64,000 nt of DNA, from NCBI GenBank assembly GCA_016704485.1, contig JADJAA010000002.1, forward strand, positions 239,591 through 303,590, written 5' to 3'. The stretch's first letter is position 1. Each line of letters starts with the position of its first letter. The position numbers were made by a program, and so were the translations under genes. The DNA comes from Flavobacteriales bacterium. GTDB taxonomy: Bacteria > Bacteroidota > Bacteroidia > Flavobacteriales_F > PHOS-HE28. Below the pieces are notes generated by a model. That model ran no database searches. It was not told where the DNA came from and saw only the letters and a program-made list of their open reading frames with translations. Below, one piece after another: positions 2,166 to 16,952 of this stretch.

Positions 2166-2560
2166 GTGTTCTATCACTGTCGATGGTGCTGGAGTGACGC
2201 GAAGATGCGGAAAGGAGTTGTCCGTTCGTGCTGCTGTGAGGAAAAGAATTTCAGGGCCACTTTACAACTCAACAAAGTCTACTACGCTTTGGTGGGGACC
2301 GTGCGGTCAAGACCAAGAACGCAAGGTCCTGAAGCGGTACCCTTGCGGAGAGTTAGTACACATGCGTGACGACAGTAATAAGGAAGTATACGAACAGTGA
2401 GCTGCAAAGGTTATCGATCACCTGGGCCAAGCAGCCGGAAAATGTACCTCGCAAGCTCCAGCGGGATGCGTGCGATCCATGGCCCAACTAGTAGCCCATT
2501 GCCTACAAGTAAGTGGTATTTAACAATGCGAGAAACATTTTGTTAAAGGATCACGCCATT

Positions 2561-2982
2561 TTCTTCTTTGTCTTTTTCATTTTCTCCTTTGTACTTGCGG
2601 CAAGTTCCTTTGTCTTTTTCATTTTCTCCTTTGTACTTGCGGCAAGTTCCTTTGTCTTTTTCATTTTCTCCTTTGCACTTGCGGCAAGTTCCTTTGTCTT
2701 TTTCATTTTCTCCTTTGTACTTGCGGCAAGTTCCTTTGTCTTTTTCATTTTCTCCTTTGTACTTGCGGCAAGTTCCTTTGTCTTTTTCATTTTCTCCTTT
2801 GTACTTGCGGCAAGTTCCTTTGTCTTTTTCATTTTCTCCTTTGCACTTGCGGCAAGTTCCTTTGTCTTTTTCATTTTCTCCTTTGTACTTGCGGCAAGTT
2901 CCTTTGTCTTTTTCATTTTCTCCTTTGCACTTGCGGCAAGTTCCTTTGTCTTTTTCATTTTCTCCTTTGTCTTTTTCATTTT
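2561..2982. repeat. 42-bp tandem repeat, ~10 copies (internal 21-bp periodicity of TCCTTTGT)
   Basis: The unit ttctcctttgtacttgcggcaagttcctttgtctttttcatt repeats head-to-tail. The only variation is T/C at gtacttgcgg versus gcacttgcgg. The 42 bp = 14 codons, so every frame gives a 14-aa periodic ORF (e.g. MKKTKELAASTKEK on the minus strand). Confidence 0.95.
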
Positions 2983-3375
2983 GGCAAAGCACTTTTTGGT
3001 TTTGCCCTCGCAATTGGCGGTGCTCTGCCCTCAAACCGGCGTTCTTCGCTGCCAAATAGCGTCGGCACGCGCCGTTTCGACCGGATTACTTCGTTTGCAG
3101 TGGGATCTTCATTTAACAGCCCCTCCGCGCCGTAAAGGAGGCTCCCGATTTCGAATACTTCAAGTCGGGACGGTCGGAGCTCACGATGGATCTTTCGGCG
3201 GAGTGGTCGGCTGGATGGCCGGAGGTCGGAATGACGATCGTGCCAGCCCCAACAGGACTGTGTTCCCTCTTGATCTATACGAAGAATGGGCTCCGTTTGG
3301 TGCATTTTGCGAAGGTGTAATGGGGAATAGGGTGGTGTAAGTGACTATGGGTCAGGCTGCTAAATGTGGCCCTAT

Positions 3376-3704
3376 GTTGACCTCATGTTCATGAACGTTG
3401 CCTCCCATGTTCATGAAGGTTGCCCTCACTGTTCATGAAGGTTGCCCTCACTGTTCATGAAGGTTGCCTTCACTGTTCATGAAGGTTGCCCTCACTGTTC
3501 ATGAAGGTTGCCCTCACTGTTCATGAAGGTTGCCCTCACTGTTCATGAACGTTGCCCTCACTGTTCATGAAGGTTGCCTCCCATGTTCATGAACGTTGCC
3601 CCTCATGTTCATGAAGGTTGCCTCCCATGTTCATGAACATTGCCCCTCATGTTCATGAAGGTTGCCTCCCATGTTCATGAACATTGCCCCTTAGGTTCAT
3701 GAAC
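3376..3704. repeat. 22-bp tandem repeat array A (~15 units, consensus GTTGCCCTCACTGTTCATGAAG)
   Basis: Direct head-to-tail 22-bp units. Variants ctccca/ccctca/ccttca and gaag/gaac alternate in places as a 44-bp higher-order repeat. 22 is not a multiple of 3, so the array is non-coding. Confidence 0.95.
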
Positions 3705-3968
3705 ATTGCCCACCATGTCATACGACATTGCCCACCATGTCGACTGTAGTTGCCCACCATGTCGACTGACGTTGCCCACCATGTCGACTGACGTTGCCCA
3801 CCATGTCGACTGACATTGCCCACCATGTCGACTGACATTGCCCACCATGTCGACTGACATTGCCCACCATGTCGACAGACATTGCCCACCATGTCGACTG
3901 ACGTTGCCCACCATGTCGACTGACATTGCCCACCATGTCGACTGACATTGCCCACCATGTCGACTGAC
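3705..3968. repeat. 22-bp tandem repeat array B (~12 units, consensus (A/G)TTGCCCACCATGTCGACTGAC)
   Basis: Contiguous with array A. Units share the (G/A)TTGCCC head, but the tail changes to ACCATGTCGACTGAC. Transitional units are visible at 3683-3748. Confidence 0.95.
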
Positions 3969-4209
3969 ATTGCCCACCACTACGACTGTAGTTGCCCACC
4001 ACTACGACTGTAGTTGCCCACCACTACGAGCGTAGTTGCCCACCACTACGACTGTAGTTGCCCACCACTACGACCGTAGTTGCCCACCACTACGACTGTA
4101 GTTGCCCACCACTACGACTGTAGGTGCCCATCACTACGACTGTAGTTGCCCGACACTACGCTTGTAGTTGCCCACCTCGACGACTGTAGTTGTCCAGCAC
4201 TACGCCTGA
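3969..4209. repeat. 22-bp tandem repeat array C (~11 units, consensus GTTGCCCACCACTACGACTGTA, decaying toward 4209)
   Basis: Contiguous with array B. The last units become progressively degenerate: ggtgcccatcac, gttgcccgacac, gttgtccagcac. Confidence 0.9.
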
Positions 4210-4499
4210 CCTTGCGCACGAGCGGGCCGTAAATGCCCGATATGTCCATAAACCCCTCGTATTGACGGCGGCCTCCGGTGGGTAAGGTTTCTTGGCCTCT
4301 TGGTTGGCTTGGGTTTGGGCTTTTGGTCCCTAGTCCAGTGGCTTCTGGCGTTGGCTGGTATGGTTGCCATGCCACAGGCAGGCCATAGGTTGAGGTGGTT
4401 GGTGGGTAGGTTGGTATTGAAGGGGCTAGCATAAGCTTCTCTCCTCAAGCACAGGAGTACCTGCCGGCCCGTATGTACTGCTCTGTGCCGAGCACTGCC

Positions 4500-6124
4500 G
4501 ACCTTGATCACATTATGGGGAAGGGAATCCCGTGCGAGTTGGGTACACGGCCCGGGCCACATGGGTGATACTTCCAGAGTATTGGCTTGGCCCGGGTGGG
4601 TAGACAACGCAGGGTCCCGAAGCGGAGACTTATTCTATGTTAAAAACAAGCATAACGTAAAGTTTTTTTCAGGCATTAGGACTCCAGCCATGAACCAAGG
4701 ATGAGGCCCACCCTTGATCCATGTTGTTGGCCGTTGCCATCATGCCTATCCCTGTTAGGTTGCTCTTCAGCAGAGCCTGCTTCCGTTTGGACACGACATA
4801 CGAAGTACGGCAATCCGATCAATTCTGCACTAATTGCCGCTGCTCATAGGGCCGGTTGTTGCGGATCACGGCGCAAACACAATGGATGATCTTATTACGG
4901 ACCGCATTGACAACCAATATCGGCTTCTTGCCTTCAGATACTTTGCGTTGGAAGTAGACCTTTAATTCTCCTTCGCGTTGCACGTTGGCAAGTGCAGCCA
5001 TGTGGAGCATGGTCTTAAGGATCTTGTTGGCTTGATGTGATACTTGCGTTCGTCCGCGAATACTGCTACCAGAACTACGCTCAAATGGAGCTACACCAGC
5101 ATGACATGCCAGTTCGCGTGGGTTCGTAAATCGATGGAAGCCATCGGTGAGCGCGATCAAATAGCTCGCTAATTGTGGGCCTACGCCGGGGATCGTGAGC
5201 AACAGGTTGTATTGTTCACTGGTTATATCATCGGCTTTGATCTGTGCCATGATCAGTTGCTCTACGCGTATCACGGCACGATCAGAAGCAACGATCAAAC
5301 GCTTGTCAAGTTGGTCGAACGCCTTTTTAATGTCCTTGTCCATGTAGCGGTTCAGGTCCGAGAGATGCTTCTTGTACATGGCTCTGACGCGAACCAAGTG
5401 TTGCCTACGTGTGAGCAGGTGCTTGAGTTTATCGAGCTTGAGGTTCTGTGCTGTGAACAAACGTGTTTTCTCTCGAAATGTGCGTGCGTATTGCGCGATC
5501 CGCAAAGCGTCCACTTTGTCGTTCTTCACACGCTTGATGCCCATGCTCTTTTGTATATCGAGCGGGTGCGCCAACCAAGCATGCCAGTGCTGCTCCACGA
5601 TCAGATTAAGCAACATCAACGTATAGTGCCCGGTAGGTTCCAAACACACTAGGCATTCCCCGGTGTCAACTCCGTATCGTTTCTTCCAGCTGTTCATTAG
5701 CGTCATTACGGCTGTACGACCATTGCTTACTTGCAAGCTCTCCAAGTGAACACCGTGTTCATCGAGCAATGCGAAATCCAAGGTTGCACTGCTCACATCG
5801 ATACCGATCCAATGCTTCATTTTCGTTTACTTTGAGGTTCAACAAATGATCGCTGTTGAGGCTGAGCGACAGGTCCGATGCTCCATGACTCTAATAGGCC
5901 CTTACGCCTAGCATTCTATCCGAGCCTTAGACCTGAGAAAGCCAGAGGTACCCATAAGTCTCTTAGGGGCTTTAACCCTAGCTGCGGAGTTGGTTCACCC
6001 CTGGCTTGGCTCAGTTCTCTTCAGTGATCTATCGACATCTAAGAAAATAGTTCCTTAGTGACGATGCAATACTAGAGCCTGCATAGGGTTAGTGGTCAAG
6101 TGGGCGTGAAGGCTCCGCGGCATC
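4500..6124 (-). mobile_element. IS110-family insertion sequence, approximate extent including non-coding flanks
   Basis: The transposase is flanked by about 300 bp of structured, GC-rich non-coding DNA on each side. The family has no terminal inverted repeats, so exact ends cannot be set by eye. Confidence 0.35.
4819..5820 (-). CDS. IS110-family transposase (DEDD N-terminal domain + IS116/IS110/IS902 C-terminal domain)
   Basis: 333-aa ORF with ATG start. N-terminus WIGIDVSSATLDFAL and C-terminal LLTIPGVGPQLASYLIALTDGFHRFTNPRELACHAGVAPFERSSGSS are both hallmark IS110-family transposase motifs. Confidence 0.85.
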   Translation of the reverse strand: MKHWIGIDVSSATLDFALLDEHGVHLESLQVSNGRTAVMTLMNSWKKRYGVDTGECLVCLEPTGHYTLMLLNLIVEQHWHAWLAHPLDIQKSMGIKRVKNDKVDALRIAQYARTFREKTRLFTAQNLKLDKLKHLLTRRQHLVRVRAMYKKHLSDLNRYMDKDIKKAFDQLDKRLIVASDRAVIRVEQLIMAQIKADDITSEQYNLLLTIPGVGPQLASYLIALTDGFHRFTNPRELACHAGVAPFERSSGSSIRGRTQVSHQANKILKTMLHMAALANVQREGELKVYFQRKVSEGKKPILVVNAVRNKIIHCVCAVIRNNRPYEQRQLVQN

Positions 6125-7399
6125 TTAATACGTTTGACCATCCGCCTTCAGAACCACAATACTTTCCCTTAGTGCTGGAACTTCCGTCGAATGTGCTTCA
6201 TGATTCCAATGTTGGCCTGAGCTACGTAAACGGCGAATGACCTGTACTTCCTGCGTAAGCCAACCTACCTTTTCAGCGATGTCCGCGAGGATAAAATCCA
6301 CGGGGATTACCACTCCGGCATATGCGGAGGTGCCAACGGCAATTTTTAGGACCGCATCTGGTTTTGCTCTGTTCCGAAGGTTCTTCAATAGTCCGGCCAT
6401 GTCTTCAAAGTAGGCTTGAATCATATTGGGGATGTTCGGATTCCAAAGTTGCTCCTTGCGCACAACTAACTCTTTGTATGCTTTTGCATAGTTGATACCG
6501 AAGTCGTCATTAAATGGCTTCGCCCAGGCTGCTTGCACATGCGACCGGACCGTTTGGAGCCGAATATTCATCAAGTCTGCGTTAGTGCGAACAAAACCGC
6601 CCAAGAAAAGCTCCGGCCTATAGACATCTGTGTAGTCGAAGGAGTTCAAGTAAGGCGGTGATGTGACACAGAGGTCGAACTTTCGTATATCCCTGTGTGT
6701 ACTGAGCCGCCGCGCATCCATGCGCTCAACACTGGACTTGGAACCAGATATTGGGGCTGCTACTACGTCCTCCTTCATCATAGCAATGTATGCCTCGTAT
6801 GCGCTGAGAAAAGAGGACGCATTGAATGACCGATAGTTGTCCATGCGCTTGTACCGGAGGCATTTGCCATCAGGATACGCATTACAATTATCCATGGCTG
6901 CCTTCATAAGCGCCAAACGGCTTAACGATCGCTCAGGACGTGCGAAACGTTTGGTGGAATCCCAGCCTCCCATGAAGGATCGAAGTACGGACCTGTTGAA
7001 TAGCCATTTACTCTTGCCTCCAGCTTGTGAGAAGGTGGAATAGGACTCAAGCGAAGTCTTCAGAGGCTGTCGAATGCCCTTGACCGTCCACTCAAACGCG
7101 TTTGAAAGGATACGGGGCGTTGATTGTTCAAGTTTGGCCTGACCAACAAAAGCGAGGAACGGATTTACTTCAAAGGCAAGGCACTCAACTCCACTTAAAG
7201 CATATTGCAGAGGACTAGTGCCGGAACCGCTGAAAGGCTCTATGGCGAAAATCCCATTCCGTGGTGTGTGATCGACCTCTGAAAGTGCGTCCGTAATTAG
7301 AGAAGCACTGAAGCCCTCCTTAATTGGGTACCATCGATGACGAGGCAACACCATGTTATCTACGGCATTGGTAATTGAGCGAACTGCATGTTTTGGCAT
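6125..7399 (-). CDS. DNA amino-methyltransferase (N6-adenine or N4-cytosine; SPPY motif IV), fourth gene of coupled operon
   Basis: 424 aa. Motif I IFAIEPFSGSGTSPL, acidic beta-2 end CLAFEVNP, motif IV LCVTSPPYLNSFDY. The ATG at 7397-7399 lies 2 bp after the upstream gene's stop at 7402-7404. Confidence 0.7.
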   Translation of the reverse strand: MPKHAVRSITNAVDNMVLPRHRWYPIKEGFSASLITDALSEVDHTPRNGIFAIEPFSGSGTSPLQYALSGVECLAFEVNPFLAFVGQAKLEQSTPRILSNAFEWTVKGIRQPLKTSLESYSTFSQAGGKSKWLFNRSVLRSFMGGWDSTKRFARPERSLSRLALMKAAMDNCNAYPDGKCLRYKRMDNYRSFNASSFLSAYEAYIAMMKEDVVAAPISGSKSSVERMDARRLSTHRDIRKFDLCVTSPPYLNSFDYTDVYRPELFLGGFVRTNADLMNIRLQTVRSHVQAAWAKPFNDDFGINYAKAYKELVVRKEQLWNPNIPNMIQAYFEDMAGLLKNLRNRAKPDAVLKIAVGTSAYAGVVIPVDFILADIAEKVGWLTQEVQVIRRLRSSGQHWNHEAHSTEVPALRESIVVLKADGQTY

Positions 7400-7401
7400 A
7401 C

Positions 7402-8466
7402 TTAGGCTTCTAAGAAAAGGCGGATTGGTTTTTCAAAGTCACTTCTTGTGGAATGGTAATCTGGGTTATAGGTGATTTCGCGTGTCGCAAAATGACATTG
7501 CTGTTTAGCTGTTAGTGATTTGGTGCTCGCCTTTACTCCATGGCGGCGACAGTCAAAAACAACGAGATAACCCAACGTGTCCGAAGCAGGACTATTTCGC
7601 TTGTGATTGTCAAGGTAATTCGCAAGTTGCTCTGCACCTTTATTTGCACGTGATTCGCCATAGTTGGCAGTGAATCTTGCACCATCACCACTACGGGATT
7701 TACCAATCCACTTAATTTCAATAAGTGCCTCTCTCGTAGACATCTGGGCTGTTAACTTGATGTCAATCGGATGGCTTTCATCGATATTTTGTTCGGGGCG
7801 AACCCAATAGTCATCAAAGCGCATACAACAGCGCAGGTAATGGCTAAGAGAGGTACGTAGCCGGTGTTCTGGTCCTGGCCCGAACCAGAAGCGTCTATCT
7901 GGATCTTGCCAAGCTTCCCGCAAAGTTGGGCATGTAGAGTGGCGAGCTAGGCTATGCCCGTAATCCAGCAGGGCTTCGCGCAGGTCATCAAAATGATGAA
8001 GCAGGAACTGACTTGGTGCCCCAGGTAGGAATTTGTCAACAGTCAGGCATTGTTCGCCAATCCGAAACTCCTCGACCTCTTGAACTAAACTGTAAACAAT
8101 AGCGTCGGTCTGGTTTTGAAGGGGTGAGTTTACATTCCCTTTCCAAAGAAATGCAGTTCCGTCTGGTCTTATCTCAATTGCTGCCAAATCGAGTACGCCG
8201 TTGATGGTTTTACCATTGAGAATTCGTTCGGCTTGGACAAGGCGCTTCTCATCAAGTTCCGAATGAATTCCTATTGGGGCAAAGACAGTGAGTTGCGTTT
8301 TTCGATTAACACGGCAGAACTGGCCTTGAATGCGAAGAAAGTTCAAGAGCTGTTTAAGCCGTGTGACACCCTCTTCACCAAACACCTCTTGAGCCTTTAT
8401 TAATGGCTGATTCGCCAATGCGCGATGCATGACGTCTGTATCAATTTTCCTAGTTGCTATGCTCAT
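7402..8466 (-). CDS. Hypothetical protein with PD-(D/E)xK-like nuclease motif (candidate restriction/effector nuclease), third gene of operon
   Basis: 354 aa. HPIDIKLTAQMSTREALIEIKWIGK gives D then E-x-K with 15-residue spacing, characteristic of the restriction-endonuclease fold. Its start overlaps the upstream gene's end by 17 bp. Confidence 0.5.
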   Translation of the reverse strand: MSIATRKIDTDVMHRALANQPLIKAQEVFGEEGVTRLKQLLNFLRIQGQFCRVNRKTQLTVFAPIGIHSELDEKRLVQAERILNGKTINGVLDLAAIEIRPDGTAFLWKGNVNSPLQNQTDAIVYSLVQEVEEFRIGEQCLTVDKFLPGAPSQFLLHHFDDLREALLDYGHSLARHSTCPTLREAWQDPDRRFWFGPGPEHRLRTSLSHYLRCCMRFDDYWVRPEQNIDESHPIDIKLTAQMSTREALIEIKWIGKSRSGDGARFTANYGESRANKGAEQLANYLDNHKRNSPASDTLGYLVVFDCRRHGVKASTKSLTAKQQCHFATREITYNPDYHSTRSDFEKPIRLFLEA

Positions 8467-9049
8467 GTGTTCGGCCTATGGTAAGCAAGTATTCAAGCCA
8501 AGCGGAGAGTGGGAGGGAAAGGTCACTACCTTGATAGGGTAGCAGTTCCCTGATTTCCCCAAATGTATCATGGAGTCTATCTACGATTGGATCACTGAAC
8601 AACCAAGCTGTTTGGGCGTGTCGCTTAATAAATGCAAGTGCGGGCTCGTAAGCAAAAGCTTCACGGATGACACTCGGTGTGAACAAGAGCAAGCAATCCG
8701 CTGCTCCGTTGAGGTAGGCTAACCTTTCTTGATTGATAGTGTGTTCCTTCCAAATACCTAGGTTGGTTTGTCCATCAGAAGTAATCTGTAGTAATTCTCC
8801 ATGATCCGTGATGTCACCTATACGTATACAGTAATCCAGTGCATCATCAAGGTTTTTCGAGAACGGCAAGCCTGATGGAGTGGAGCTAAATTCATATTCC
8901 CAATCTGAAACTGGTTTGCCTCCGTACAATGACAGCAGGCAGCTTGCGTAGGCAAGTAGGTGTAACTCTGATCTTGAGAAGCCCCTAACCGTTTGTGTCA
9001 GTCGTGAACCCAGTAGGAGCGAGTCAAAGTATGCTTGCGGACTGGTCAT
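8450..9049 (-). CDS. Hypothetical 199-aa protein (candidate 'middle component'), second gene of operon
   Basis: The ATG at 9047-9049 overlaps the ATPase stop at 9046-9048 (ATGA). No recognisable catalytic motifs. Predicted soluble. Confidence 0.6.
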   Translation of the reverse strand: MTSPQAYFDSLLLGSRLTQTVRGFSRSELHLLAYASCLLSLYGGKPVSDWEYEFSSTPSGLPFSKNLDDALDYCIRIGDITDHGELLQITSDGQTNLGIWKEHTINQERLAYLNGAADCLLLFTPSVIREAFAYEPALAFIKRHAQTAWLFSDPIVDRLHDTFGEIRELLPYQGSDLSLPLSAWLEYLLTIGRTHEHSN

Positions 9050-10989
9050 ATATTTCTGGAGTGTGCGAGTGCATCCAGCGCATTCAAGCGATTCTCAAAT
9101 TCTGCTTCATGCTTCTCTTGCACTTCAGACAGTTCGCGCCACTTATACAGGCGATGGAGTCCAAACCCGAGACTCGATTGCTTCGCAATCTCGGTGAGAA
9201 GTTCAGAAGTGTTGATGTTGGCTGTCATGAAGACAGGGTGTCCGTCATTGGCGAATTCAGCCACCATTTGTCCGGCTTGTGACTCATAAGCTAGATCAAG
9301 ACTGCCTTCTGGTGTATCTATGTAAAGGGGAGCTTTGATGGTATCTGATGAAACGTAGTTAGCTAGCGCCATTCTTAGTGCAATGTCGATGAAGAAGCGC
9401 TGACTTTCGGAGAGGTCATGCTCCGCATGTCGCTGTGTCTTCTTCACTGTTAGCGCCAGAGTAACACTCTTATCGCGCGTTTCGAGTTGGATATCTAAGT
9501 CGACACCCAGAAAGAGATTGGCTAAAGTGTTAAACTTAGGAACAAAGTCTTCCTGAATATTCAGGTATTCTTGCTCTAGCTTTTTTTGTATTTGCTTGTA
9601 AGCTTTAGAAGCTTCGGCACTTTTACTCTTCTGCTTCAAACGCTCCTTATCGATTTCGGCAATAGTTTTCTCATATGCTGCAATGACTTGATCATGATTA
9701 GCGTCCACCGGTCTGCCTCGGTTAACAACATCTCGATTTTGCTCTTCAAAGGCGTCAAGCTCTGTTTGCACAGTTTCAAGTGAACGTACGCGTATGTCAT
9801 TTTCGACATCAAGCTGAGTGATAAGGAGCACACTGGAATCGACACGCTTTTTCTGTTCGGCCAGTTCCTTATCAAGCTCTTTAAGGCGCTGGTGCACAGC
9901 TGCCGGAATGGTAGCCCGGTCAGTTGCAGCTTTGCACAGTGGACAAGTATGCTCCGCAATAGCCTTTTTTACAGGCTCTACAACTGCGATGCCCTCAGTA
10001 CCGCAAATAGCACATTTGTGCTCAATTAGTGCGAGCTGGATTGCGGGTGCGTTCTCTACTGAGTGCTTTGCCGTCACGCGTTCGCTGAACTCGCGTTGGT
10101 AGTCGTTTCGAATGACGGAAGCTCGTGCAGCGCCTTCAGCAAGCGCGAGTTTGGCATCGCGCAATTTGGTTTGAATTATATCGACCTCATTTGATCGTTC
10201 TTTCACTCGGTCAAGGAGTGTCTCAAATTCTTCATATGTGCTTGCCTCATCGTCTACAAGTTCATTCCCGCTGAGTACCTGTCTGAGGCTGTCAAGCCGA
10301 TCTTTTTGCTGTGTCATGTTCCAGCGCAGATTTCGAACCCTTGAATCCGCCTTTTCCATTTCACGTCTCAGTCTTTCCGCATCTGCCCGCTGTTCATTAT
10401 CAATTCCTACAAACAGAAGCAAGCAGGTTTCTAGAACTTTCGGATCCCAAAACAATAAATGACGTCGTTCATCAAAAGTGAGCACGAATGATTGGATGAA
10501 GACAAACTCCTTGAACGTTGAGAGTCCGATGTGCTGAGTTAATACGGCCTGATAATTTGCCTCCCGGTCTTCGGGTGTCATCTCATCAAAGTGCCTGGCA
10601 TCGTTTGTAATGACAAGTGACCGCAGCGCATCAGGTTCATCGAATCCTCGAATTAGCGTAATTGTTCGATCTCCGATTGTGAGTTCAAGTTCGATTTCTG
10701 CAATGTCACGGTCCTCAGGCTGTACACGCCCTTGAAAGTAGTCCTTGGAGAATCTTGAAATATCTCGGTAGTAATCATCAACGGATACGAACTTTTGTCC
10801 TGGGCGTGGAACAACTCCTGTTAGGCCGTAATTGATGATTTGGAAAAATGTAGATTTCCCAAGACCATTGGCCCCTGCAAGGCATGTCGTTCCAGGTTGG
10901 ATTGAAAATTCAATGTGGTCCTGAAGATTGTACAGCGAGAAGTGTGACAGTCGGATCCGGCGCACAATAGGGAAGTTAAGATGCCTCAT
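9046..10989 (-). CDS. Rad50/SMC-like ABC ATPase with coiled-coil insert and CxxC..CxxC zinc-hook-like site, first gene of operon
   Basis: 647 aa. N-terminal Walker A CLAGANGLGKSTF. A ~270-aa helical, charged central region contains KCAICGTEG and HTCPLCK. C-terminal signature-like LSESQRFFIDIALRMAL, Walker B/D-loop PLYIDTPEGSLD, and H-loop candidate NDGHPVF. Confidence 0.8.
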   Translation of the reverse strand: MRHLNFPIVRRIRLSHFSLYNLQDHIEFSIQPGTTCLAGANGLGKSTFFQIINYGLTGVVPRPGQKFVSVDDYYRDISRFSKDYFQGRVQPEDRDIAEIELELTIGDRTITLIRGFDEPDALRSLVITNDARHFDEMTPEDREANYQAVLTQHIGLSTFKEFVFIQSFVLTFDERRHLLFWDPKVLETCLLLFVGIDNEQRADAERLRREMEKADSRVRNLRWNMTQQKDRLDSLRQVLSGNELVDDEASTYEEFETLLDRVKERSNEVDIIQTKLRDAKLALAEGAARASVIRNDYQREFSERVTAKHSVENAPAIQLALIEHKCAICGTEGIAVVEPVKKAIAEHTCPLCKAATDRATIPAAVHQRLKELDKELAEQKKRVDSSVLLITQLDVENDIRVRSLETVQTELDAFEEQNRDVVNRGRPVDANHDQVIAAYEKTIAEIDKERLKQKSKSAEASKAYKQIQKKLEQEYLNIQEDFVPKFNTLANLFLGVDLDIQLETRDKSVTLALTVKKTQRHAEHDLSESQRFFIDIALRMALANYVSSDTIKAPLYIDTPEGSLDLAYESQAGQMVAEFANDGHPVFMTANINTSELLTEIAKQSSLGFGLHRLYKWRELSEVQEKHEAEFENRLNALDALAHSRNI

Positions 10990-11196
10990 GCTTGGTGATT
11001 AGATTGATATTAACCTACTCAATCCTTAGTGTCGATTTGGAATTTGAATAACGCGCGTTCCTTAGCGTTAGGGATTGAGGCGGAAAGCCAGTAGGCGAGG
11101 AGGAACGACGAGTGTAGTTTTGCAGTGGAAAGAGTGCCTCAGAATGAATTTGAGCATGTACCCGCCCAAAGAAACAACAATCCTCACGTTCGCCAT

Positions 11197-11288
11197 CATT
11201 TCTGATCCAACTTCCTAACCATCGTCAAAATAGTAGCAATGGCAATCGTCTCCCCAGTTTCATCCACAACATCAACAAGGAACTTCAC
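11197..11288 (-). pseudogene. Diverged duplicate of the paaZ 3' end (30 codons + stop)
   Basis: Minus-strand translation VKFLVDVVDETGETIAIATILTMVRKLDQK* matches the true C-terminus of the adjacent gene, ...VKFLVDVVDETGETVAIATILTMVRKLDQE*. Many synonymous nucleotide differences. It is in a different frame from the intact gene. Confidence 0.6.
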
Positions 11289-11323
11289 CCCGGGTCGAGG
11301 CCCGGGGCAGGCTCTTAAATGAA

Positions 11324-13390
11324 TCATTCTTGGTCGAGCTTTCTTACCATGGTCAGGATGGTTGCTATTGCGACAGTTTCTCCTGTTTCGTCTACGACGT
11401 CGACCAAGAATTTGACGATTCCTGATGCCACATCCGCACCCTTCGGAGAATCTTCCGTTAGCACTTTCTTCTCCTGATCCACTTTCTCCTTTACGGTGAA
11501 CTTAACCTGGATCGTGGAGCCCGGATAAACAGGTTTTGTAAAGCGCGCTTCTTCGATGCCGTAGTTGAGTAGTACAGGTCCTTTAGGTGGGTCTACGAAG
11601 AGACCCGCTGCTCGCGATAGGATAAAGTAACCGTGTGCCACGCGACCGGTGAAGACAGTTCCGTCGAGGGCGTTCTCGTCCATGTGGGCGTAGAACTTGT
11701 CGCCGCTGAGGTCTGCGAAGTTGTTGATGTCATCCAACGTTACCAAGTGCTTGTCGGTGATCACAGTGTCGCCGATGTTCAGCTCTTCGAAATGCATGCG
11801 GAAGGTGTGCTTCGGCGTGATGTTCTGTTTCGCACCTTGCTGGTACTGTTGTGTCAACGCAGTGATCGTTGTCGGTGATCCTTGGATGGCGGTGCGTTGC
11901 AGGTAGTGCAATACACCACGCTTGCCGCCCATCTCTTCACCACCACCTGCACGTCCGGGGCCGCCGTGTACCAATGTTGCGAGCGGTGATCCGTGTCCGG
12001 TGTTCTCCTTGGCCATGTCGCGGTTGATCACCAGCATACGTCCGTGGTGACTTGCTGCACCCCACACGAATTGCTGTGCTGCTTTATCGTCGTACGTCGC
12101 AATACTCGCGCAGAGACTGCCTTTGCCGAGTTTGGTAAGTGCTACCGCTTCTTCGATATCGGTGTAGGGCATCAATGTGCTTACCGGTCCAAAGGCTTCG
12201 ATGTTGTGGCACTGTTGGTTCTTCCATGGATCTTTGTTCAGTAGTAGGATCGGACTCATGAATGCACCTTTCTCGGAATCGGCACCGGTCACGTCCACGC
12301 TGTTGGGGTCGCCGTACACCAGCTCGCTGCCTTTCATTAATTCGGCGAGGTTATCGCGCACTTCGTTGCGTTGTGTTTGTCCGGCAAGAGCTCCCATGCG
12401 CACACCTTCTGCGCGCGGATCACCGATCACTGTTCCGCCCAAGCGTTTGCCCAATGCGATCTGCACATCCTCTACCAAGTTCTCTGGAACCATAATGCGT
12501 CGCGCACCGGTGCAGCGTTGGCCGCACTTCAACGTCATTTCCTTTCCCACTTCTTTAATGAAGAGCGAGAACTCTTCGGTATCCGGTGTGGCATCAGGGC
12601 CAAGCACAATGCTGTTCAAGCTATCGGCCTCCATGTTGAAGGGCACACTTTCGGCAATGATCTGCTTGTGCGCTTTCAGCATGCGTCCGGTGGTTGCACT
12701 TCCGGTGAAGGTCACCACATCTTGGCTCTCCACATGATCCAAAAGATCACCGGCGCTGCCTACGATCAATTGGATGGCGCCTTCAGGTAAGATGCCTGAG
12801 GCGACTATCGCCTTCACCATCGCTTCCGTCAAATAACTGGTAACGGTAGCGGGTTTCACCACCGCTGGCATTCCAGCCATCCAGTTCACGGCGCATTTTT
12901 CCAGCATCCCCCAGATCGGGAAATTGAACGCATTGATGTGTACTGCAACACCTTCCTTCGGCACCATGATGTGGTGGCCCATGAAGCTGCCGCCTTTGCT
13001 CGTGAGTACAGGAGGTCCATCCACATAGAACGGCATATTGCCGAGCTGTTTGCGCAAGCTCGCATTGGCAAAAACGTTTCCGATCCCGCCTTCAATATCC
13101 ACCCAACTATCAGCCTTGGTCGCACCGGTGCGGTAACTGATCTGGTAGAACTCCTCCTTGCGATCCATCAAATACATGGCGAGTGCTTTCAGCATTCTGC
13201 CGCGTTCCGGGAAGGTCATTTTGCGCAGCGTTGGTCCACCGGTTTCGCGTGCGTAGTTCAGCATCGCGCCAAAATCCAGACCACCGCTACTGGTTGTTGC
13301 GATGAGTTCGCCGGTGCTGGCGTCCGTGAGTTCGGTTTGTTTTCCGGATCCTTTCACCCAGGTTCCAGCGATATAATTTTCGAGTTGCAT
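11324..13390 (-). CDS. paaZ: PaaZ-like bifunctional aldehyde dehydrogenase / MaoC-type enoyl-CoA hydratase
   Basis: 688 aa. N-terminal ALDH features (FTGSATTG, catalytic CGQRCTGARR) and a C-terminal hot-dog MaoC-like domain. Length matches PaaZ. Confidence 0.75.
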   Translation of the reverse strand: MQLENYIAGTWVKGSGKQTELTDASTGELIATTSSGGLDFGAMLNYARETGGPTLRKMTFPERGRMLKALAMYLMDRKEEFYQISYRTGATKADSWVDIEGGIGNVFANASLRKQLGNMPFYVDGPPVLTSKGGSFMGHHIMVPKEGVAVHINAFNFPIWGMLEKCAVNWMAGMPAVVKPATVTSYLTEAMVKAIVASGILPEGAIQLIVGSAGDLLDHVESQDVVTFTGSATTGRMLKAHKQIIAESVPFNMEADSLNSIVLGPDATPDTEEFSLFIKEVGKEMTLKCGQRCTGARRIMVPENLVEDVQIALGKRLGGTVIGDPRAEGVRMGALAGQTQRNEVRDNLAELMKGSELVYGDPNSVDVTGADSEKGAFMSPILLLNKDPWKNQQCHNIEAFGPVSTLMPYTDIEEAVALTKLGKGSLCASIATYDDKAAQQFVWGAASHHGRMLVINRDMAKENTGHGSPLATLVHGGPGRAGGGEEMGGKRGVLHYLQRTAIQGSPTTITALTQQYQQGAKQNITPKHTFRMHFEELNIGDTVITDKHLVTLDDINNFADLSGDKFYAHMDENALDGTVFTGRVAHGYFILSRAAGLFVDPPKGPVLLNYGIEEARFTKPVYPGSTIQVKFTVKEKVDQEKKVLTEDSPKGADVASGIVKFLVDVVDETGETVAIATILTMVRKLDQE

Positions 13391-13507
13391 AGGGGCGAAG
13401 TTCGAGAATTATGTGCTCAAGGTTGGCTTAACTTTATAATTGAGCCTTGTGAATTGTGTCTTGTTTCTTCCGCGTAGCGGCATCCCAATAGCAGGCTGCG
13501 TAAAAGT

Positions 13508-14734
13508 TCACCGCACGAACACCTTCCCCTTCATAACCGTTCCCTCGATGTCGATGAGGGTCCAGAACATTAGTCCGGCAGGGCTGGCGACATACTCAGT
13601 TGAACTGTTGATCCGATCCTTGGAATGCATTCTTCCTTGCAGATCGAACAGGGTGAGCGTGCCTCCTCCTTGTACACCATGCACCTCAACCACTCCAGGC
13701 GCACCAGCTATCACAGTGTACTGCGATCCCGGATCTTGATCATCCACATTGACCGCGAAATTGAACGTGAAGTTTGCGGTATCGGTATTGCCACAGGGGT
13801 CATTGTAGATATGCGTGGCGAAGTACGTATCCGATGTCGGGAACGTGAACGTGGCCGTTGCAGTAGTGAACGATTCGCCATTGGTACAGGTCCAGAGGTG
13901 CGTGCCTTGCCCGTAGTGGATCAGGGTGATGAAGTCGGGTCCATTGATGAAGCCATCGAGTAGGGCATTGGTTCCATTCGGTTCGTCGAGATTCCAAGTG
14001 CCAATATCATCTAGAACCGTGGCGCTGGCTATACTGCGAAGGATCGCCGCCGTCTCCGGTAGAAGTGTTGAATTGAATGTTGCGTCAACACAACTTACTT
14101 GGAAAAAGGTGCAATAGAACACGCATGCCGCGAGGTAGGTGCCTTCCACGGAAGGATGGGATCCATCAGCATCGTACAGGTTGATGAGCGGGTACGTATC
14201 GCGCACTTGTTTCCACGCTGCCCCGACGGGTGCGGTGTGTGCATCGTTCCAAGTGGCGAGTGACACATAGTTGTTCCTCAATGCCTGTTGCATACCGTTG
14301 TAAGTACACATGAAAGGGAAGGCGGCACAATTGTCGGGATCGCCGTTCTGCCTGCCCCAGGTCATGTAAAAGACGGGATAGGTGCATTCGTAATTCTCTT
14401 CGATCGTCGCCATCAGCTGGATCGCGGCGATCTCCGTAGTGGTGACATCCGCAGGCAATGCACCCAATTGACTTTGTTCCTGCATCACCACGAAATCCCA
14501 CGAGTTCGACTCTATCGCTGTGATCGTAGGCGCATACGTGGAATGTTGGAACAACGTGTACCCGCCTGGTGCCGAACTCGCAACGGTAATGTCCTCCCCT
14601 AGGGAGAGGGCAAGTTGCTGCGTCATACTCGGCAGGTCGTTCACATACGTGTAGCTATTGCCGATGAAGAGAACCGAGGTCTGCCCATGGACGTGCAATA
14701 CGGAAAGGATCAGGAGGATAAAAAGACCGCGCAT
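13508..14734 (-). CDS. Secreted SGNH/GDSL-like hydrolase (tentative) with T9SS C-terminal sorting domain
   Basis: Start moved to the internal ATG giving signal peptide MRGLFILLILSVLHVHGQ. VLFIGNSYTY is a near-N-terminal nucleophile motif. C-terminus TLTLFDLQGRMHS...GLMFWTLIDIEGTVMKGKVFVR is a Por-type CTD. Confidence 0.5.
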   Translation of the reverse strand: MRGLFILLILSVLHVHGQTSVLFIGNSYTYVNDLPSMTQQLALSLGEDITVASSAPGGYTLFQHSTYAPTITAIESNSWDFVVMQEQSQLGALPADVTTTEIAAIQLMATIEENYECTYPVFYMTWGRQNGDPDNCAAFPFMCTYNGMQQALRNNYVSLATWNDAHTAPVGAAWKQVRDTYPLINLYDADGSHPSVEGTYLAACVFYCTFFQVSCVDATFNSTLLPETAAILRSIASATVLDDIGTWNLDEPNGTNALLDGFINGPDFITLIHYGQGTHLWTCTNGESFTTATATFTFPTSDTYFATHIYNDPCGNTDTANFTFNFAVNVDDQDPGSQYTVIAGAPGVVEVHGVQGGGTLTLFDLQGRMHSKDRINSSTEYVASPAGLMFWTLIDIEGTVMKGKVFVR

Positions 14735-15034
14735 TGTGTAAAAATAGCGCATCGTACCAACATGTTGACCCAACCATAGGATCATGCATCGCGTAGTGCG
14801 CGAGTGATTACAGCTTGAGAAACTCGCTGCGCAGCGCAAATAATGGATAACCGCGTTGAAGAAGCGCGAGATCATAATGTGAAGGCTCTTTCTTTTTTCA
14901 ATTAGTTCGTTGGATGCGTTCATGTGAATGCGAGCTTACATTGCAAGTTGCAAGAACCAACAGTTCCGATCACTGCTTATTGTCAGGATTTATGTAACGG
15001 CGACACCGCAAGGTTCGAAAGGCGATTCACAGTA

Positions 15035-15727
15035 ATGCTGAGTATCATCATCCCCACATACAGTGAAGAAGGCTACATCGGAAGAACGTTGATCGCGCTT
15101 CGCAGTTGCGCGGGCATTGAACAGTGCGAAGTGTTGGTAGTGGATGGAGGTAGCACCGATGGCACGGTGCGAGAAGTAGAAGGATTGGGTATTCCTGTAG
15201 TGCATTCACTCAAGGGGCGCGCTGTGCAGATGAATGCCGGAGCTGCCAACGCATTGGGTGATACGTTCTACTTTCTACATGCCGAAAGCGTTCCACCGCC
15301 GGACTTTGTTGCTGAGATCTCTGTCGCACTTGCGGAAGGTGCGGCGGCCGGATGTTTCCGCTTGGGCTTCGACCATGACCATTGGTTCTTACGTTTCAAC
15401 TGTTGGTTCACGCGCTTTGATGTGAATGCATTCCGCTATGGAGATCAAAGCCTTTTTGTTACTAAGGAAGCTTTTGATCGGATCGGAGGTTTTAAGGAAG
15501 AACTGATCGTTTTTGAGGACAACGACATTGTTTGTCGCTTAAAACAAAAGGGTCGTTTTCGAGTGCTAAGTGGGATTGTGCGTACCAGTGCGCGCAAGTA
15601 TGTTCTGAATGGCGTTCACCGAATGCAGTGGATATTTTATTACATGTTCTTGCTCTACAAAATGGGTTGTTCGCAGGATAGGCTCGTTCGCAGCTATCGG
15701 CGTTTGATCAAGCAGGATAAAATTTGA
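15035..15727 (+). CDS. Family 2 glycosyltransferase
   Basis: Start moved to the ATG at 15035 (MLSIIIPTYSEEGYIGRTL, with the GT2 'IIIPTYN'-like motif). DGGSTDGT follows. The track ORF from 14924 begins with a non-ATG codon. Confidence 0.75.
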   Translation: MLSIIIPTYSEEGYIGRTLIALRSCAGIEQCEVLVVDGGSTDGTVREVEGLGIPVVHSLKGRAVQMNAGAANALGDTFYFLHAESVPPPDFVAEISVALAEGAAAGCFRLGFDHDHWFLRFNCWFTRFDVNAFRYGDQSLFVTKEAFDRIGGFKEELIVFEDNDIVCRLKQKGRFRVLSGIVRTSARKYVLNGVHRMQWIFYYMFLLYKMGCSQDRLVRSYRRLIKQDKI

Positions 15728-15980
15728 ACGGGTTGTGAATACATCCATGAGCGAGAATTGTACAGTTGATTGCTGATCTAGATCCTGTGATATGGCCTCC
15801 TTTCTTCTTTTTAGTTGAGGTGTTTTCGAAAAGCTATTAAGATGGATAGCATTGAATGGAAGACGCTGACTACTTGCATCCGAACAGAACTAACTTCGAA
15901 TGACCACACGTGGTGTGATCCTACCGGTTATGTAATGCACGTGACAAAGTTCATGATCGATCATCATCTTTGAGGGCAAA

Positions 15981-16952
15981 TTGGCCTTGATCGTGTCAGT
16001 ACCAGTATTTCCCACCACATTAGTGCGTTTGCGTCTTACCCAACTCCGCCGGGCTTATCCCGGATGGTGGGTCGTGCTCTTGGCGATTGCAATTATCGCG
16101 ATACCGATCGTCGTGGAAAAGTTGGTAGTGAGCGATTCCAACATGCGCTATTATTTGAGTGGTGCATTTCTATTGGCCGTGGTTGGCTGGCACCAGCGTC
16201 GACCTGACCTCCGATTCGTTCGCAAGCATATCGCACAACCGAATGGATCGTTGATGCTCGAGTATCTGTTGTTGGCGTTGCCGGTCATGATCGGTTTTGG
16301 GATGGCAAACGCTTGGGTTGAAGTTGGTGCTGTATTGTTCGGCATGATCGCACTTGTCTTCATGCCGGTCATGGATCCTGTAGGAACCCATATGCGTTGG
16401 TTGCGTTCCCGCATTCCTGCTTTGTTGTTCGAAATGAAGGCGGGGCTGCAGCGCACATATCCGTTCGCATTTGTGATCTGGGTTTTGGCACTAGCGTTCT
16501 GTTGGTTACCGGCATTGCCCTTGTTCCTAACATGGGTCCTTACAATGATCATGGCCTCGCAGTTCGAAGAGTGCGAATCGCGCGCAATGCTCTTGGTCAC
16601 TGCATCGGATGCGCGGAGTATCTTGAATAAGAAGATCGCGGGTTCATTGAAGATCATGTTGCTGATCATGGCTCCGGTATTGATCGCAGCAACGATCGCG
16701 CGTCCGGAGTGGTGGTGGATCCATGGCCTGTTCGGACTTGGTCAATTGAGTGTGATCGCGTTGGCGGTGATCCTCAAGTACAAAGAATACATTCCCAATG
16801 AGCGGCTCACCGCGAATGGCGCGACCATTGCCATTGGTGCAGTGTTCGCATTGTTGCCGGGTCTTTTTTTGTTGCCGCTTTTAATGGCGCTTACCGATCG
16901 ACGTAAAGCGCTCGAGAACCTCGATCTATATTTTCATGCTACAGATCACTGA
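15981..16952 (+). CDS. Polytopic membrane protein (putative permease partner of downstream ABC ATPase)
   Basis: 323 aa, multiple hydrophobic helices. Its 3' end overlaps the next gene by 17 bp. Confidence 0.55.
   Translation: MALIVSVPVFPTTLVRLRLTQLRRAYPGWWVVLLAIAIIAIPIVVEKLVVSDSNMRYYLSGAFLLAVVGWHQRRPDLRFVRKHIAQPNGSLMLEYLLLALPVMIGFGMANAWVEVGAVLFGMIALVFMPVMDPVGTHMRWLRSRIPALLFEMKAGLQRTYPFAFVIWVLALAFCWLPALPLFLTWVLTMIMASQFEECESRAMLLVTASDARSILNKKIAGSLKIMLLIMAPVLIAATIARPEWWWIHGLFGLGQLSVIALAVILKYKEYIPNERLTANGATIAIGAVFALLPGLFLLPLLMALTDRRKALENLDLYFHATDH

Follow-up and report, generated by a model that had tools for sequence, protein, structure and literature searches.

Replacement of the 3' end of a protein gene by integrating elements is known from phage 21 and e14, which use icd of Escherichia coli, and from SGI1-type islands at trmE. 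In naturally transformable bacteria, homology-facilitated illegitimate recombination joins incoming DNA by one homologous anchor and one illegitimate junction and requires no recombinase. SGI1 at trmE also appears in PMC8409611; rAID-1 (recombinase-associated acquired interbacterial defence) systems are defined by arrays with a repeated intergenic motif that lie behind a XerD-family recombinase (10.1101/471110). Here, we analyzed a duplicated 3' end of the gene paaZ in a Flavobacteriales bacterium of PHOS-HE28 (assembly GCA_016704485.1, contig JADJAA010000002.1, positions 239,591 to 303,590 of the forward strand; these 64,000 nucleotides (nt) are referred to as the window). We consider it moderately probable that a 128-bp module consisting of a recoded gene end, its stop codon and a hairpin spacer was inserted at codon V659 of paaZ, and that it represents, without cargo, a family of cassettes that replace the paaZ end. 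L-numbers (L001 etc.) denote the paaZ loci of related species and assemblies used for comparison.

The two ends of paaZ

The paaZ gene (11324-13390, minus strand) is contained in the list of open reading frames (ORFs) as an intact frame of 688 amino acids (aa) with an aldehyde dehydrogenase domain (Pfam Aldedh, 8.9e-53) and a MaoC hot-dog domain (MaoC_dehydratas, 2.4e-23); the name PaaZ was taken from the source annotations of its homologues. The last 30 codons, V659 to E688, and the stop codon constitute copy A (11324-11416, minus strand), which is recoded and contiguous with paaZ. The paaZ frame runs through copy A to the stop codon and yields the full-length protein, so that the end of the module restores an intact frame. 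A spacer of 35 nt, designated type S2 and belonging to the inserted module, extends from the paaZ stop codon to a second gene end (11289-11323, minus strand). This displaced ancestral end, copy B (11196-11288, minus strand), comprises 30 codons and a stop codon, begins at V659 as GTG, encodes VKFLVDVVDETGETIAIATILTMVRKLDQK and was detected within the window by tblastn with an E-value of 7e-15. A third paaZ end was not found in the whole 64-kb window.

A preliminary description of this DNA had noted a duplicate paaZ end beyond the true stop codon, and such a duplicate is indeed present. Two of its details were adjusted: the distance to the stop codon is 35 nt instead of about 40 bp, and the 30-residue end is the same at 28 of 30 positions, with two conservative changes (V673I and E688K) instead of one. 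Both copies are identical at 64 of 96 nucleotides (67%), and 26 of 30 codons differ, nearly all of them at third positions. The earlier view that the many synonymous differences indicate two alleles and not a fresh duplication was thus borne out, with copy B being orthologous to the ends found in sister species and copy A showing a foreign codon pattern. Exactly this PaaZ is encoded on 21 contigs from independent NCBI, JGI and ENA assemblies, and an identical stretch of 221 nt comprising copy A, spacer and copy B was present in all nine loci retrieved (L081-L089). As independent assemblies agree on the structure, an assembly artefact can be dismissed, and the species has this arrangement throughout.

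Codon usage was tried as a test for the native copy and was discarded, as neither copy clearly fits the paaZ body or the background; orthology decided instead. Copy B is 87-89% identical at the nucleotide level to the single functional ends of L001, L003, L007 and L096, with about 82% for the gene body (values per locus: L001, 88% by blastn; L003, 87%; L005, 84%; L096, 87%). Copy A reaches only 67-70% identity to the functional ends of sister species, as compared to about 82% for the gene body, and its third-position identity to them is 23% versus 57-59% in the paaZ body. It groups with the A-type ends of L004, L013, L011 and L008. Furthermore, about 140 nt following copy B (the native downstream flank of paaZ, 11055-11195, minus strand, delimited by motif search and flank alignment) align with the flank after the sole paaZ end or the last copy in more than 20 species, and the start of this flank is nearly identical to that of L100. 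Judged from these alignments, orthology to the ends in use in sister species and the native flank behind it mark copy B as the ancestral end of paaZ. The comparison of both ends with related loci, which the preliminary description had proposed, established a polarity opposite to the expected one. By the same alignments, the inserted piece is copy A plus spacer (128 bp, 11289-11416), joined exactly at codon V659.

These data also bear on an old tandem duplication in place, in which end and flank would have been copied without any foreign DNA, inherited vertically, kept in both copies by selection and diverged synonymously. Duplicates with the same junction do occur in three PaaZ clades, with A-type ends carrying the variants of their own clade, and copy B is intact and differs from the L096 end at 12 positions, mostly synonymous third positions. 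However, the sister species with 91-94% identical PaaZ (L001, L003, L096-L099, L100) have a single end of the B type. Copy B is as close to these ends as the gene body or closer, and copy A alone is saturated. Additionally, a duplication of end and flank would have left a second S2 spacer behind copy B, where the native flank lies instead, and the two spacer families, S1 and S2, are spread across clades and do not follow the PaaZ tree. We regard a duplication in place as improbable.

Gene-end modules and arrays in related species

The window's module belongs to a recurring type: 30 recoded codons ending in ...LDQ(E/A) TGA, a hairpin spacer of 35-44 nt, and then a copy starting from V659. With spacer S1 it was found in L004 (three times), L013, L024, L090 and L093, and with spacer S2, the type of the window, in L011/L092. 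The nearest relative, L095 (94% PaaZ identity), has a recoded end and an S2-like spacer; its contig ends inside the hairpin and the downstream stretch lies beyond the contig. Homologous S2 spacers are present in L011/L092 and L095, and none was found in the sister species with a single end. The entire layout of the window, i.e. paaZ, copy A, spacer, copy B and native flank, is repeated in L090, and L093 contains the same module. This establishes the recurrence of the module across species. L008 has a single end, the 5' half of which is A-like (87%) and the 3' half B-like (90%), as would be expected of a collapse product formed by recombination between copies A and B with loss of the spacer.

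The last 129 codons of paaZ were used to search 80 species representatives, comprising 55 Flavobacteriales and 25 more distant ones. Extra copies of the paaZ 3' end were present downstream of the gene at 26 of the 55 Flavobacteriales loci and at none of the 25 distant loci. One to seven extra copies were counted per locus; all are on the paaZ strand and all extend to the stop codon. Their left boundaries show a strong peak at V659 (q101), with about 25 of 67 copies; the other boundary classes are q26, q42, q47, q107 and q117. The ORFs between copies are small and mostly co-oriented (78 vs 36 in a greedy count). In 30 of 82 copies an ORF on the same strand starts within -6 to +12 nt of the copy end, its start codon often abutting or overlapping the preceding stop codon. 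The cargo includes RelB/RelE, HicB-DUF433 with a PIN-like protein, LprI-family proteins, proteins sorted by the type IX secretion system and many unknowns. There are also two larger inserts, namely a set of 8.3 kb with an AraC regulator, an oxidoreductase, a multicopper oxidase and a TonB receptor, and a set of 8.6 kb with HD-CE, TPR and M78 proteins.

A RelBE cassette is common to four species, and its homology begins at the stop codon of the preceding copy; hence, the travelling unit appears to consist of a gene end followed by its cargo. The last copy of an array adjoins the native flank. This layout would fit a process in which each arrival adds a new end and shifts older ends outward. Displaced copies decay by frameshifts, stop codons and small hairpin insertions. 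Among 32 species, synonymous codon identity in the last 30 codons is 0.38-0.54 as compared to 0.47-0.79 in most upstream segments, which fits repeated replacement of the end. The window is a member of this family of paaZ-end replacement cassettes that carries no cargo. Hosts of the arrays include many uncultured Flavobacteriales from wastewater and freshwater. A metagenome scan for the A-type signature gave only five loci, and neither viral contigs carrying the paaZ end nor relevant literature on paaZ as an integration site were found. Among 1250 ORFs of the same loci tested for other duplicated gene ends, only paralogues or out-of-frame noise appeared.

Several further features were noted at these loci. 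Hairpins rich in G+C and similar to S2 occur inside displaced paaZ copies (L031:9835-9860, L038 at about 5672-5719 and L055 at about 13164-13211), where each directly precedes a motif similar to GTGAAGTT (at q70 or q101); two of these copies have lost codons 68-100. The sequence GTGAAGTTC is present twice in paaZ, 90 nt apart. In several species of the W clade (L012, L027, L101-L104), paaZ is directly followed by a gene of about 200 aa, which may belong to the 23S rRNA intervening-sequence protein family (four-helix bundle), a family also matched by three unidentified ORFs of array regions; in L012 and L027 this gene is followed by a short paaZ-end fragment. Assembly or polishing errors are likely at the paaZ end of L055 (10870-11000, long poly-G) and of L044 (10850-10935, a homopolymer frameshift extending the ORF).

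Arrays of this kind call to mind integrons. A recombinase encoded elsewhere could act at a core near V659 (G|TNAARTT) and move small promoterless cassettes, each with its own gene end, the window then being an empty cassette. The V659 junction was found with at least ten different and unrelated left partners, and the cassettes are small, mostly co-oriented, tightly packed and equipped with toxin-antitoxin pairs, as in chromosomal integrons. Moreover, Bacteroidales have integron-like rAID-1 arrays, in which repeated intergenic sequences separate orphan immunity genes (10.1101/471110). However, no tyrosine or serine recombinase lies beside paaZ in the window. In 25 species, 100 ORFs with 180 aa or more located in or just after the arrays gave 82 Pfam families, and the 25 commonest of these include no integrase; a single one among the remaining 57 families would be missed by this survey. 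The left boundaries are not unique, as shown by the five additional classes, and the left partners lack a common attC-like motif. At the window site itself neither intI nor attI was found; copy B has no attC fold (z = +0.7), only copy A has a closing stem, and the junction differs from the integron core GTTRRRY, which with RYYYAAC characterises attC sites, i.e. imperfect palindromes folding as single strands. An integron-like system is, in our opinion, quite unlikely, although not negligible.

Recoding, terminal stem, ORF2 and the proposed route of insertion

The dissimilarity of the two copies exceeds chance. Copies A and B share 3 of 27 comparable codons, with 10.1 expected from independent draws according to genome codon usage (P=0.002), and among the functional ends of 80 species only 1.4% of all pairs are as dissimilar. 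In comparisons of A-type with ordinary (G-type) ends, a fraction of 0.24 of codons was shared in the last 29, as compared to 0.46 just upstream. Selection, or simple survivorship, against recombination between neighboring repeats would explain this dissimilarity; a functional copy recoded beyond chance is what selection against recombinational loss would produce. An exceptional conservation of the native G-type end at synonymous sites was also considered and was not clearly supported, its codon identity of 0.72 being inside the range found further upstream.

Copy A contains a perfect inverted repeat of 12 nt. Its 5' arm, ATTCTTGGTCGA (11400-11411, minus strand), covers codons K660-D663, and its 3' arm, TCGACCAAGAAT (11326-11337, minus strand), covers codons L685-E688 and the T of the TGA stop codon, thereby including A and T of the start codon of a second frame, ORF2, described below. 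The single-strand DNA fold of copy A has a z of -3.67, with none of 200 shuffled sequences being as stable, and a 12-nt repeat was reached in none of 2000 synonymous randomisations. Equivalent stems are present in L095 (10 nt, P=0.003) and, with 8 nt, in L011 (P=0.0025), and no native end, copy B among them, has a comparable one (copy B fold z = +0.7 and +0.9). Over the window, L095 and L011 the stem pairs in 94% of cells, as compared to 25-50% when the partner is slid, and three of 12 stem pairs are compensatory (TTC/GAA to TTT/AAA to TGG/GCA, and TTG/CAA to CTG/CAG). S1-type modules use another register, in which the start of the copy pairs with ATGACGTCGAC, formed by stop codon and spacer. 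The stem of copy A would close off the recoded segment, covering the paaZ stop codon as well as the ORF2 start codon that overlaps it, and probably shapes expression of the paaZ 3' end together with the spacer hairpin. A recoded copy with a covarying stem inside its coding sequence, placed over a stop codon and an overlapping start codon, is of specialist interest.

The spacer hairpin derives from a perfect G+C palindrome, CCCCGGGTCGAGGCCCGGGG (11288-11307, without strand), with arms CCCCGGG and CCCGGGG, a stem of 7-9 bp and a loop of 6 nt (TCGAGG); it lies exactly where the preliminary description had placed it as a possible terminator or recombination site. The palindrome occurs once in the window (0.01 expected by chance), forms a hairpin in the RNA fold, and its 3' base is the first G of the GTG of copy B. 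A canonical intrinsic terminator at this position was absent from the terminator scan; no U-tract follows, the subsequent sequence being GUGAAGUUCC. A search of the Rfam 15 covariance models gave no match at E <= 1 within 10500-11900. The palindrome is part of the inserted module, and other species have related hairpins at this junction, which lies at the 3' base of the hairpin. The spacer hairpins are similar to those with which native paaZ flanks begin. In the window the native flank contains a hairpin, TTTGGGCGGGTACATGCTCAAA (11149-11170, minus strand), and a motif resembling repetitive extragenic palindromes (REP), GGCTTTCCGCCTCAATCCCTAACGC (11063-11089, minus strand). More than 20 species have this REP-like motif, of the form GGCTTTCCG...ATCCCT(A/C)ACGC, behind their only paaZ end or behind the final copy.

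The REP-like motif GGCTTTCCG..ATCCCTCACGC was also observed as a dispersed repeat on both strands. It is present upstream of paaZ on the opposite strand in L009, L011, L012, L028, L035 and L053, and an inverted REP-like pair flanks paaZ in several species.

ORF2 (11196-11327, minus strand) is a predicted frame of 43 aa from the ORF list; it consists of the linker MIHLRACPGPRPG and copy B, and its ATG overlaps the paaZ stop codon as ATGA. It is also predicted by gene callers on L081, L085, L086, L088 and L089. Truncated copies in other arrays begin with ATG, GTG or TTG, never with CTG, and often start on the stop codon of the preceding ORF. Bacteroidota are not known to depend on Shine-Dalgarno sequences for initiation. 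With start codons placed on preceding stop codons in such bacteria, ribosomes could plausibly pass along the arrays by successive termination and re-initiation. The stem would hide the ORF2 start codon until a ribosome finishing paaZ opens it; stem and hairpin thus probably restrict ORF2 translation to ribosomes terminating on paaZ.

ORF2 might accordingly be a real small gene encoding a short linker and the C-terminal beta-hairpin of PaaZ, coupled to paaZ termination, with the duplication being kept for its product; this would be compatible with insertion of a module. The in-frame ATGA overlap, found with both spacer families in eight modules (window, L004 with three, L013, L024, L090, L093), the burial of the ORF2 start codon in the stem and the start codons of truncated copies elsewhere speak for such a gene, as does a leucine in the S2 linker which is kept by three different codons (TTA, CTA and CTG) in the window, L095 and L011. 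On the other hand, the S1 cases are related by descent and count as few independent ones, their linker shows little conservation, and the in-frame arrangement is broken in L011 and the equivalent copy also in L013. Many displaced copies elsewhere are decaying. A functional ORF2 gene seems unlikely to us.

As for the route of insertion, which we infer, copy A and the 35-nt spacer would have entered paaZ at V659, where the module would now supply the working C-terminus, and the ancestral end would have been pushed 128 bp downstream while remaining on its native flank. Repeated arrivals would produce the arrays found in about half of the related Flavobacteriales species, in which gene ends alternate with cargo up to a truncated native end and the native flank. 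On the left side, incoming related DNA would pair with paaZ by homology; the right join at V659, beside the 3' base of a hairpin, would be made by illegitimate or microhomology joining or by some enzyme. The module could then spread by ordinary homologous recombination with paaZ and the conserved native end plus flank as arms. It would persist because copies A and B are too dissimilar to recombine often, and pairs that do recombine would collapse to a single chimeric end as in L008.

Several observations weigh against this account. The sharp peak of junctions at V659 is unlike random illegitimate joining and points to an unexplained site preference; since the proposed route does not explain it, a site-specific enzyme stays as a rival. 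The best match found for copy A is 83%, and a donor was not found. The amino-acid variants of A-type ends are those of the respective host clade (F/I vs W/L), a pattern more in keeping with long residence or gene conversion than with a recent horizontal arrival. Neither a presence/absence polymorphism within a species nor an intermediate of insertion or excision was detected in the 21 contigs of the window species or in three further species. The S1 stem reached significance in two L004 modules and was marginal in L090 (P=0.08), and the four other modules tested lacked it. Finally, the functions proposed for stem, hairpin and ORF2 derive from sequence features.

Neighboring defence genes and relation to known systems

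Beyond the native flank lies a Lamassu-like cassette (4819-10989), which is present in all contigs of the window species and the first defence gene of which is about 200 nt from the duplicate. All of its genes are on the minus strand: an LmuB-like SMC ATPase (9046-10989; PADLOC LmuB, 3.5e-23), two ORFs without PADLOC or Pfam match (8450-9049 and 7402-8466), a type II methyltransferase (6125-7399; PADLOC MTase_II, 9e-42) and an IS110-family transposase (4819-5820; Pfam DEDD_Tnp_IS110 and Transposase_20). Of the Lamassu components LmuB, LmuA (effector) and LmuC, a model match was obtained for LmuB. The preliminary description had placed the duplicate at the edge of this cassette and had read it as the footprint of an integrative element carrying a replacement end. 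In the corresponding model, the cassette is an island that entered the paaZ 3' end, with the two copies as its attL-side footprint. The short distance to the first defence gene would agree with this, as would the defence genes located downstream of paaZ in several species (type I restriction-modification (R-M), McrBC, OLD-family ATPase, HD-CE). However, the copies flank only 35 nt and not the island, and the native flank of about 140 nt separates copy B from the cassette. The repeat predicted for the other end of the island was not detected: neither a third copy nor an att-like repeat, including one at the far side of the cassette, was found in the window.

An integrase was likewise not found near the site; Pfam analysis of the ORFs in 4200-16952 gave only the DEDD transposase of the IS110 element, 5.4 kb away, and precomputed Pfam data for the 10 kb on each side contained neither a tyrosine nor a serine recombinase. 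In addition, L004, L011, L013, L024, L090 and L093 have the tandem duplicate at V659 without the cassette, a finding which the preliminary description itself had named as speaking against a link with insertion of the island. Homologues of the cassette next to paaZ were absent from the other species examined, except for an IS110 relative in L035. On the far side, the M43 peptidase gene has no homologue near paaZ in other species that would mark the distal boundary of the island. The model of a defence island in paaZ is thus already contradicted and we consider it very improbable. The region past the native flank is variable and often occupied by defence genes of the types mentioned, and these are a separate property of the locus, independent of the duplicate. 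The earlier interpretation was therefore partly supported: a gene end has been replaced, and a classical integrative island carrying the defence genes is not the cause. Such duplicates should not be taken as the edge of the nearest island during annotation.

Further observations concern this variable region. In L035 the IS110-family transposase (11235-12209) is 54% identical to that of the window and is located about 340 nt past the paaZ stop codon; the REP-like paaZ flank may be a target for the IS110 family. Differing defence-type sets lie past the native flank in L096/L099 (2288-7957), L105-L107 and L110/L111; they comprise TPR with HSP70-like, DUF6804 and MazG-like proteins, type I R-M with Bro-N, and OLD-family AAA_15/TOPRIM with an N6_N4 methyltransferase. 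Between the IS110 element and the M43 peptidase gene, the window contains two long tandem-repeat arrays. The array at 2480-3060 has a period of 42 nt and about 10-12 copies, which are up to 99% identical; the one at 3320-4260 has about 40 copies with a period of 22 nt. Downstream of its paaZ array, L013 likewise contains a series of short tandem repeats that overlap each other.

A diversity-generating retroelement, the repeats of which would differ only at template adenines while the protein is diversified, was rejected as the source of the differences between copies A and B: at 17 of the 31 differing nucleotides neither copy has an adenine, and the protein is kept at 28 of 30 positions; a reverse transcriptase was not found among the neighboring ORFs. 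Homology-facilitated illegitimate recombination anchored in paaZ would introduce a foreign end and foreign cargo through its one illegitimate junction and leave a truncated 3' fragment of the resident gene. That process scatters its junctions, whereas those at paaZ are concentrated on a single codon and frequently lie at the 3' base of a hairpin. The spacer hairpin in turn resembles REP-like palindromes and terminator hairpins, in that it is similar to the first hairpins of native paaZ flanks and to other G+C hairpins of these genomes. It differs from them by being joined directly to a coding fragment and by travelling with a recoded gene end; the hairpin of the window also has no U-tract and occurs as a single copy in 64 kb.

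The arrays of related species share with integron and rAID-1 arrays small, mostly co-oriented and tightly packed genes separated by repeats, with toxin-antitoxin and LprI or immunity-like cargo. In contrast, the repeat at paaZ is a coding gene end conserved at the amino-acid level instead of an attC hairpin or intergenic motif, no adjacent IntI or XerD-like recombinase was found, and the first position is taken by a housekeeping catabolic gene. It is conceivable, though in our estimate rather doubtful, that the arrays represent a cassette-capture system not described before, in which a coding gene end would serve as repeat in place of attC, without a linked integrase, and cargo would be expressed by a relay of coupled frames. 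Copy A, with its covarying stem and the hairpin, would then act as an adapter or insulator that keeps paaZ intact and hard to recombine, and the old end, translated as ORF2, would be the landing pad for cassettes. Such a system, if real, would offer a tractable route to the birth and expression of promoterless gene cassettes in Bacteroidota.

The closest known kind is the replacement of a gene 3' end by integrating elements, as in icd and trmE, from which the paaZ locus departs with regard to bracketing repeats and integrase. In both cases the inserted DNA brings its own last codons, the gene stays intact and the original end is displaced with many synonymous differences. Unlike icd and trmE, the two paaZ ends are 35 nt apart with no element between them and no integrase found, and the paaZ site holds arrays of up to seven copies, with cargo of 0.3-1.3 kb and displaced copies of several lengths. 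Replacement of 3' ends is thus familiar from integrating elements; unusual at paaZ are a site in a housekeeping catabolic gene that is used again and again, small cassettes without a recombinase and a coding repeat that is kept at the protein level.

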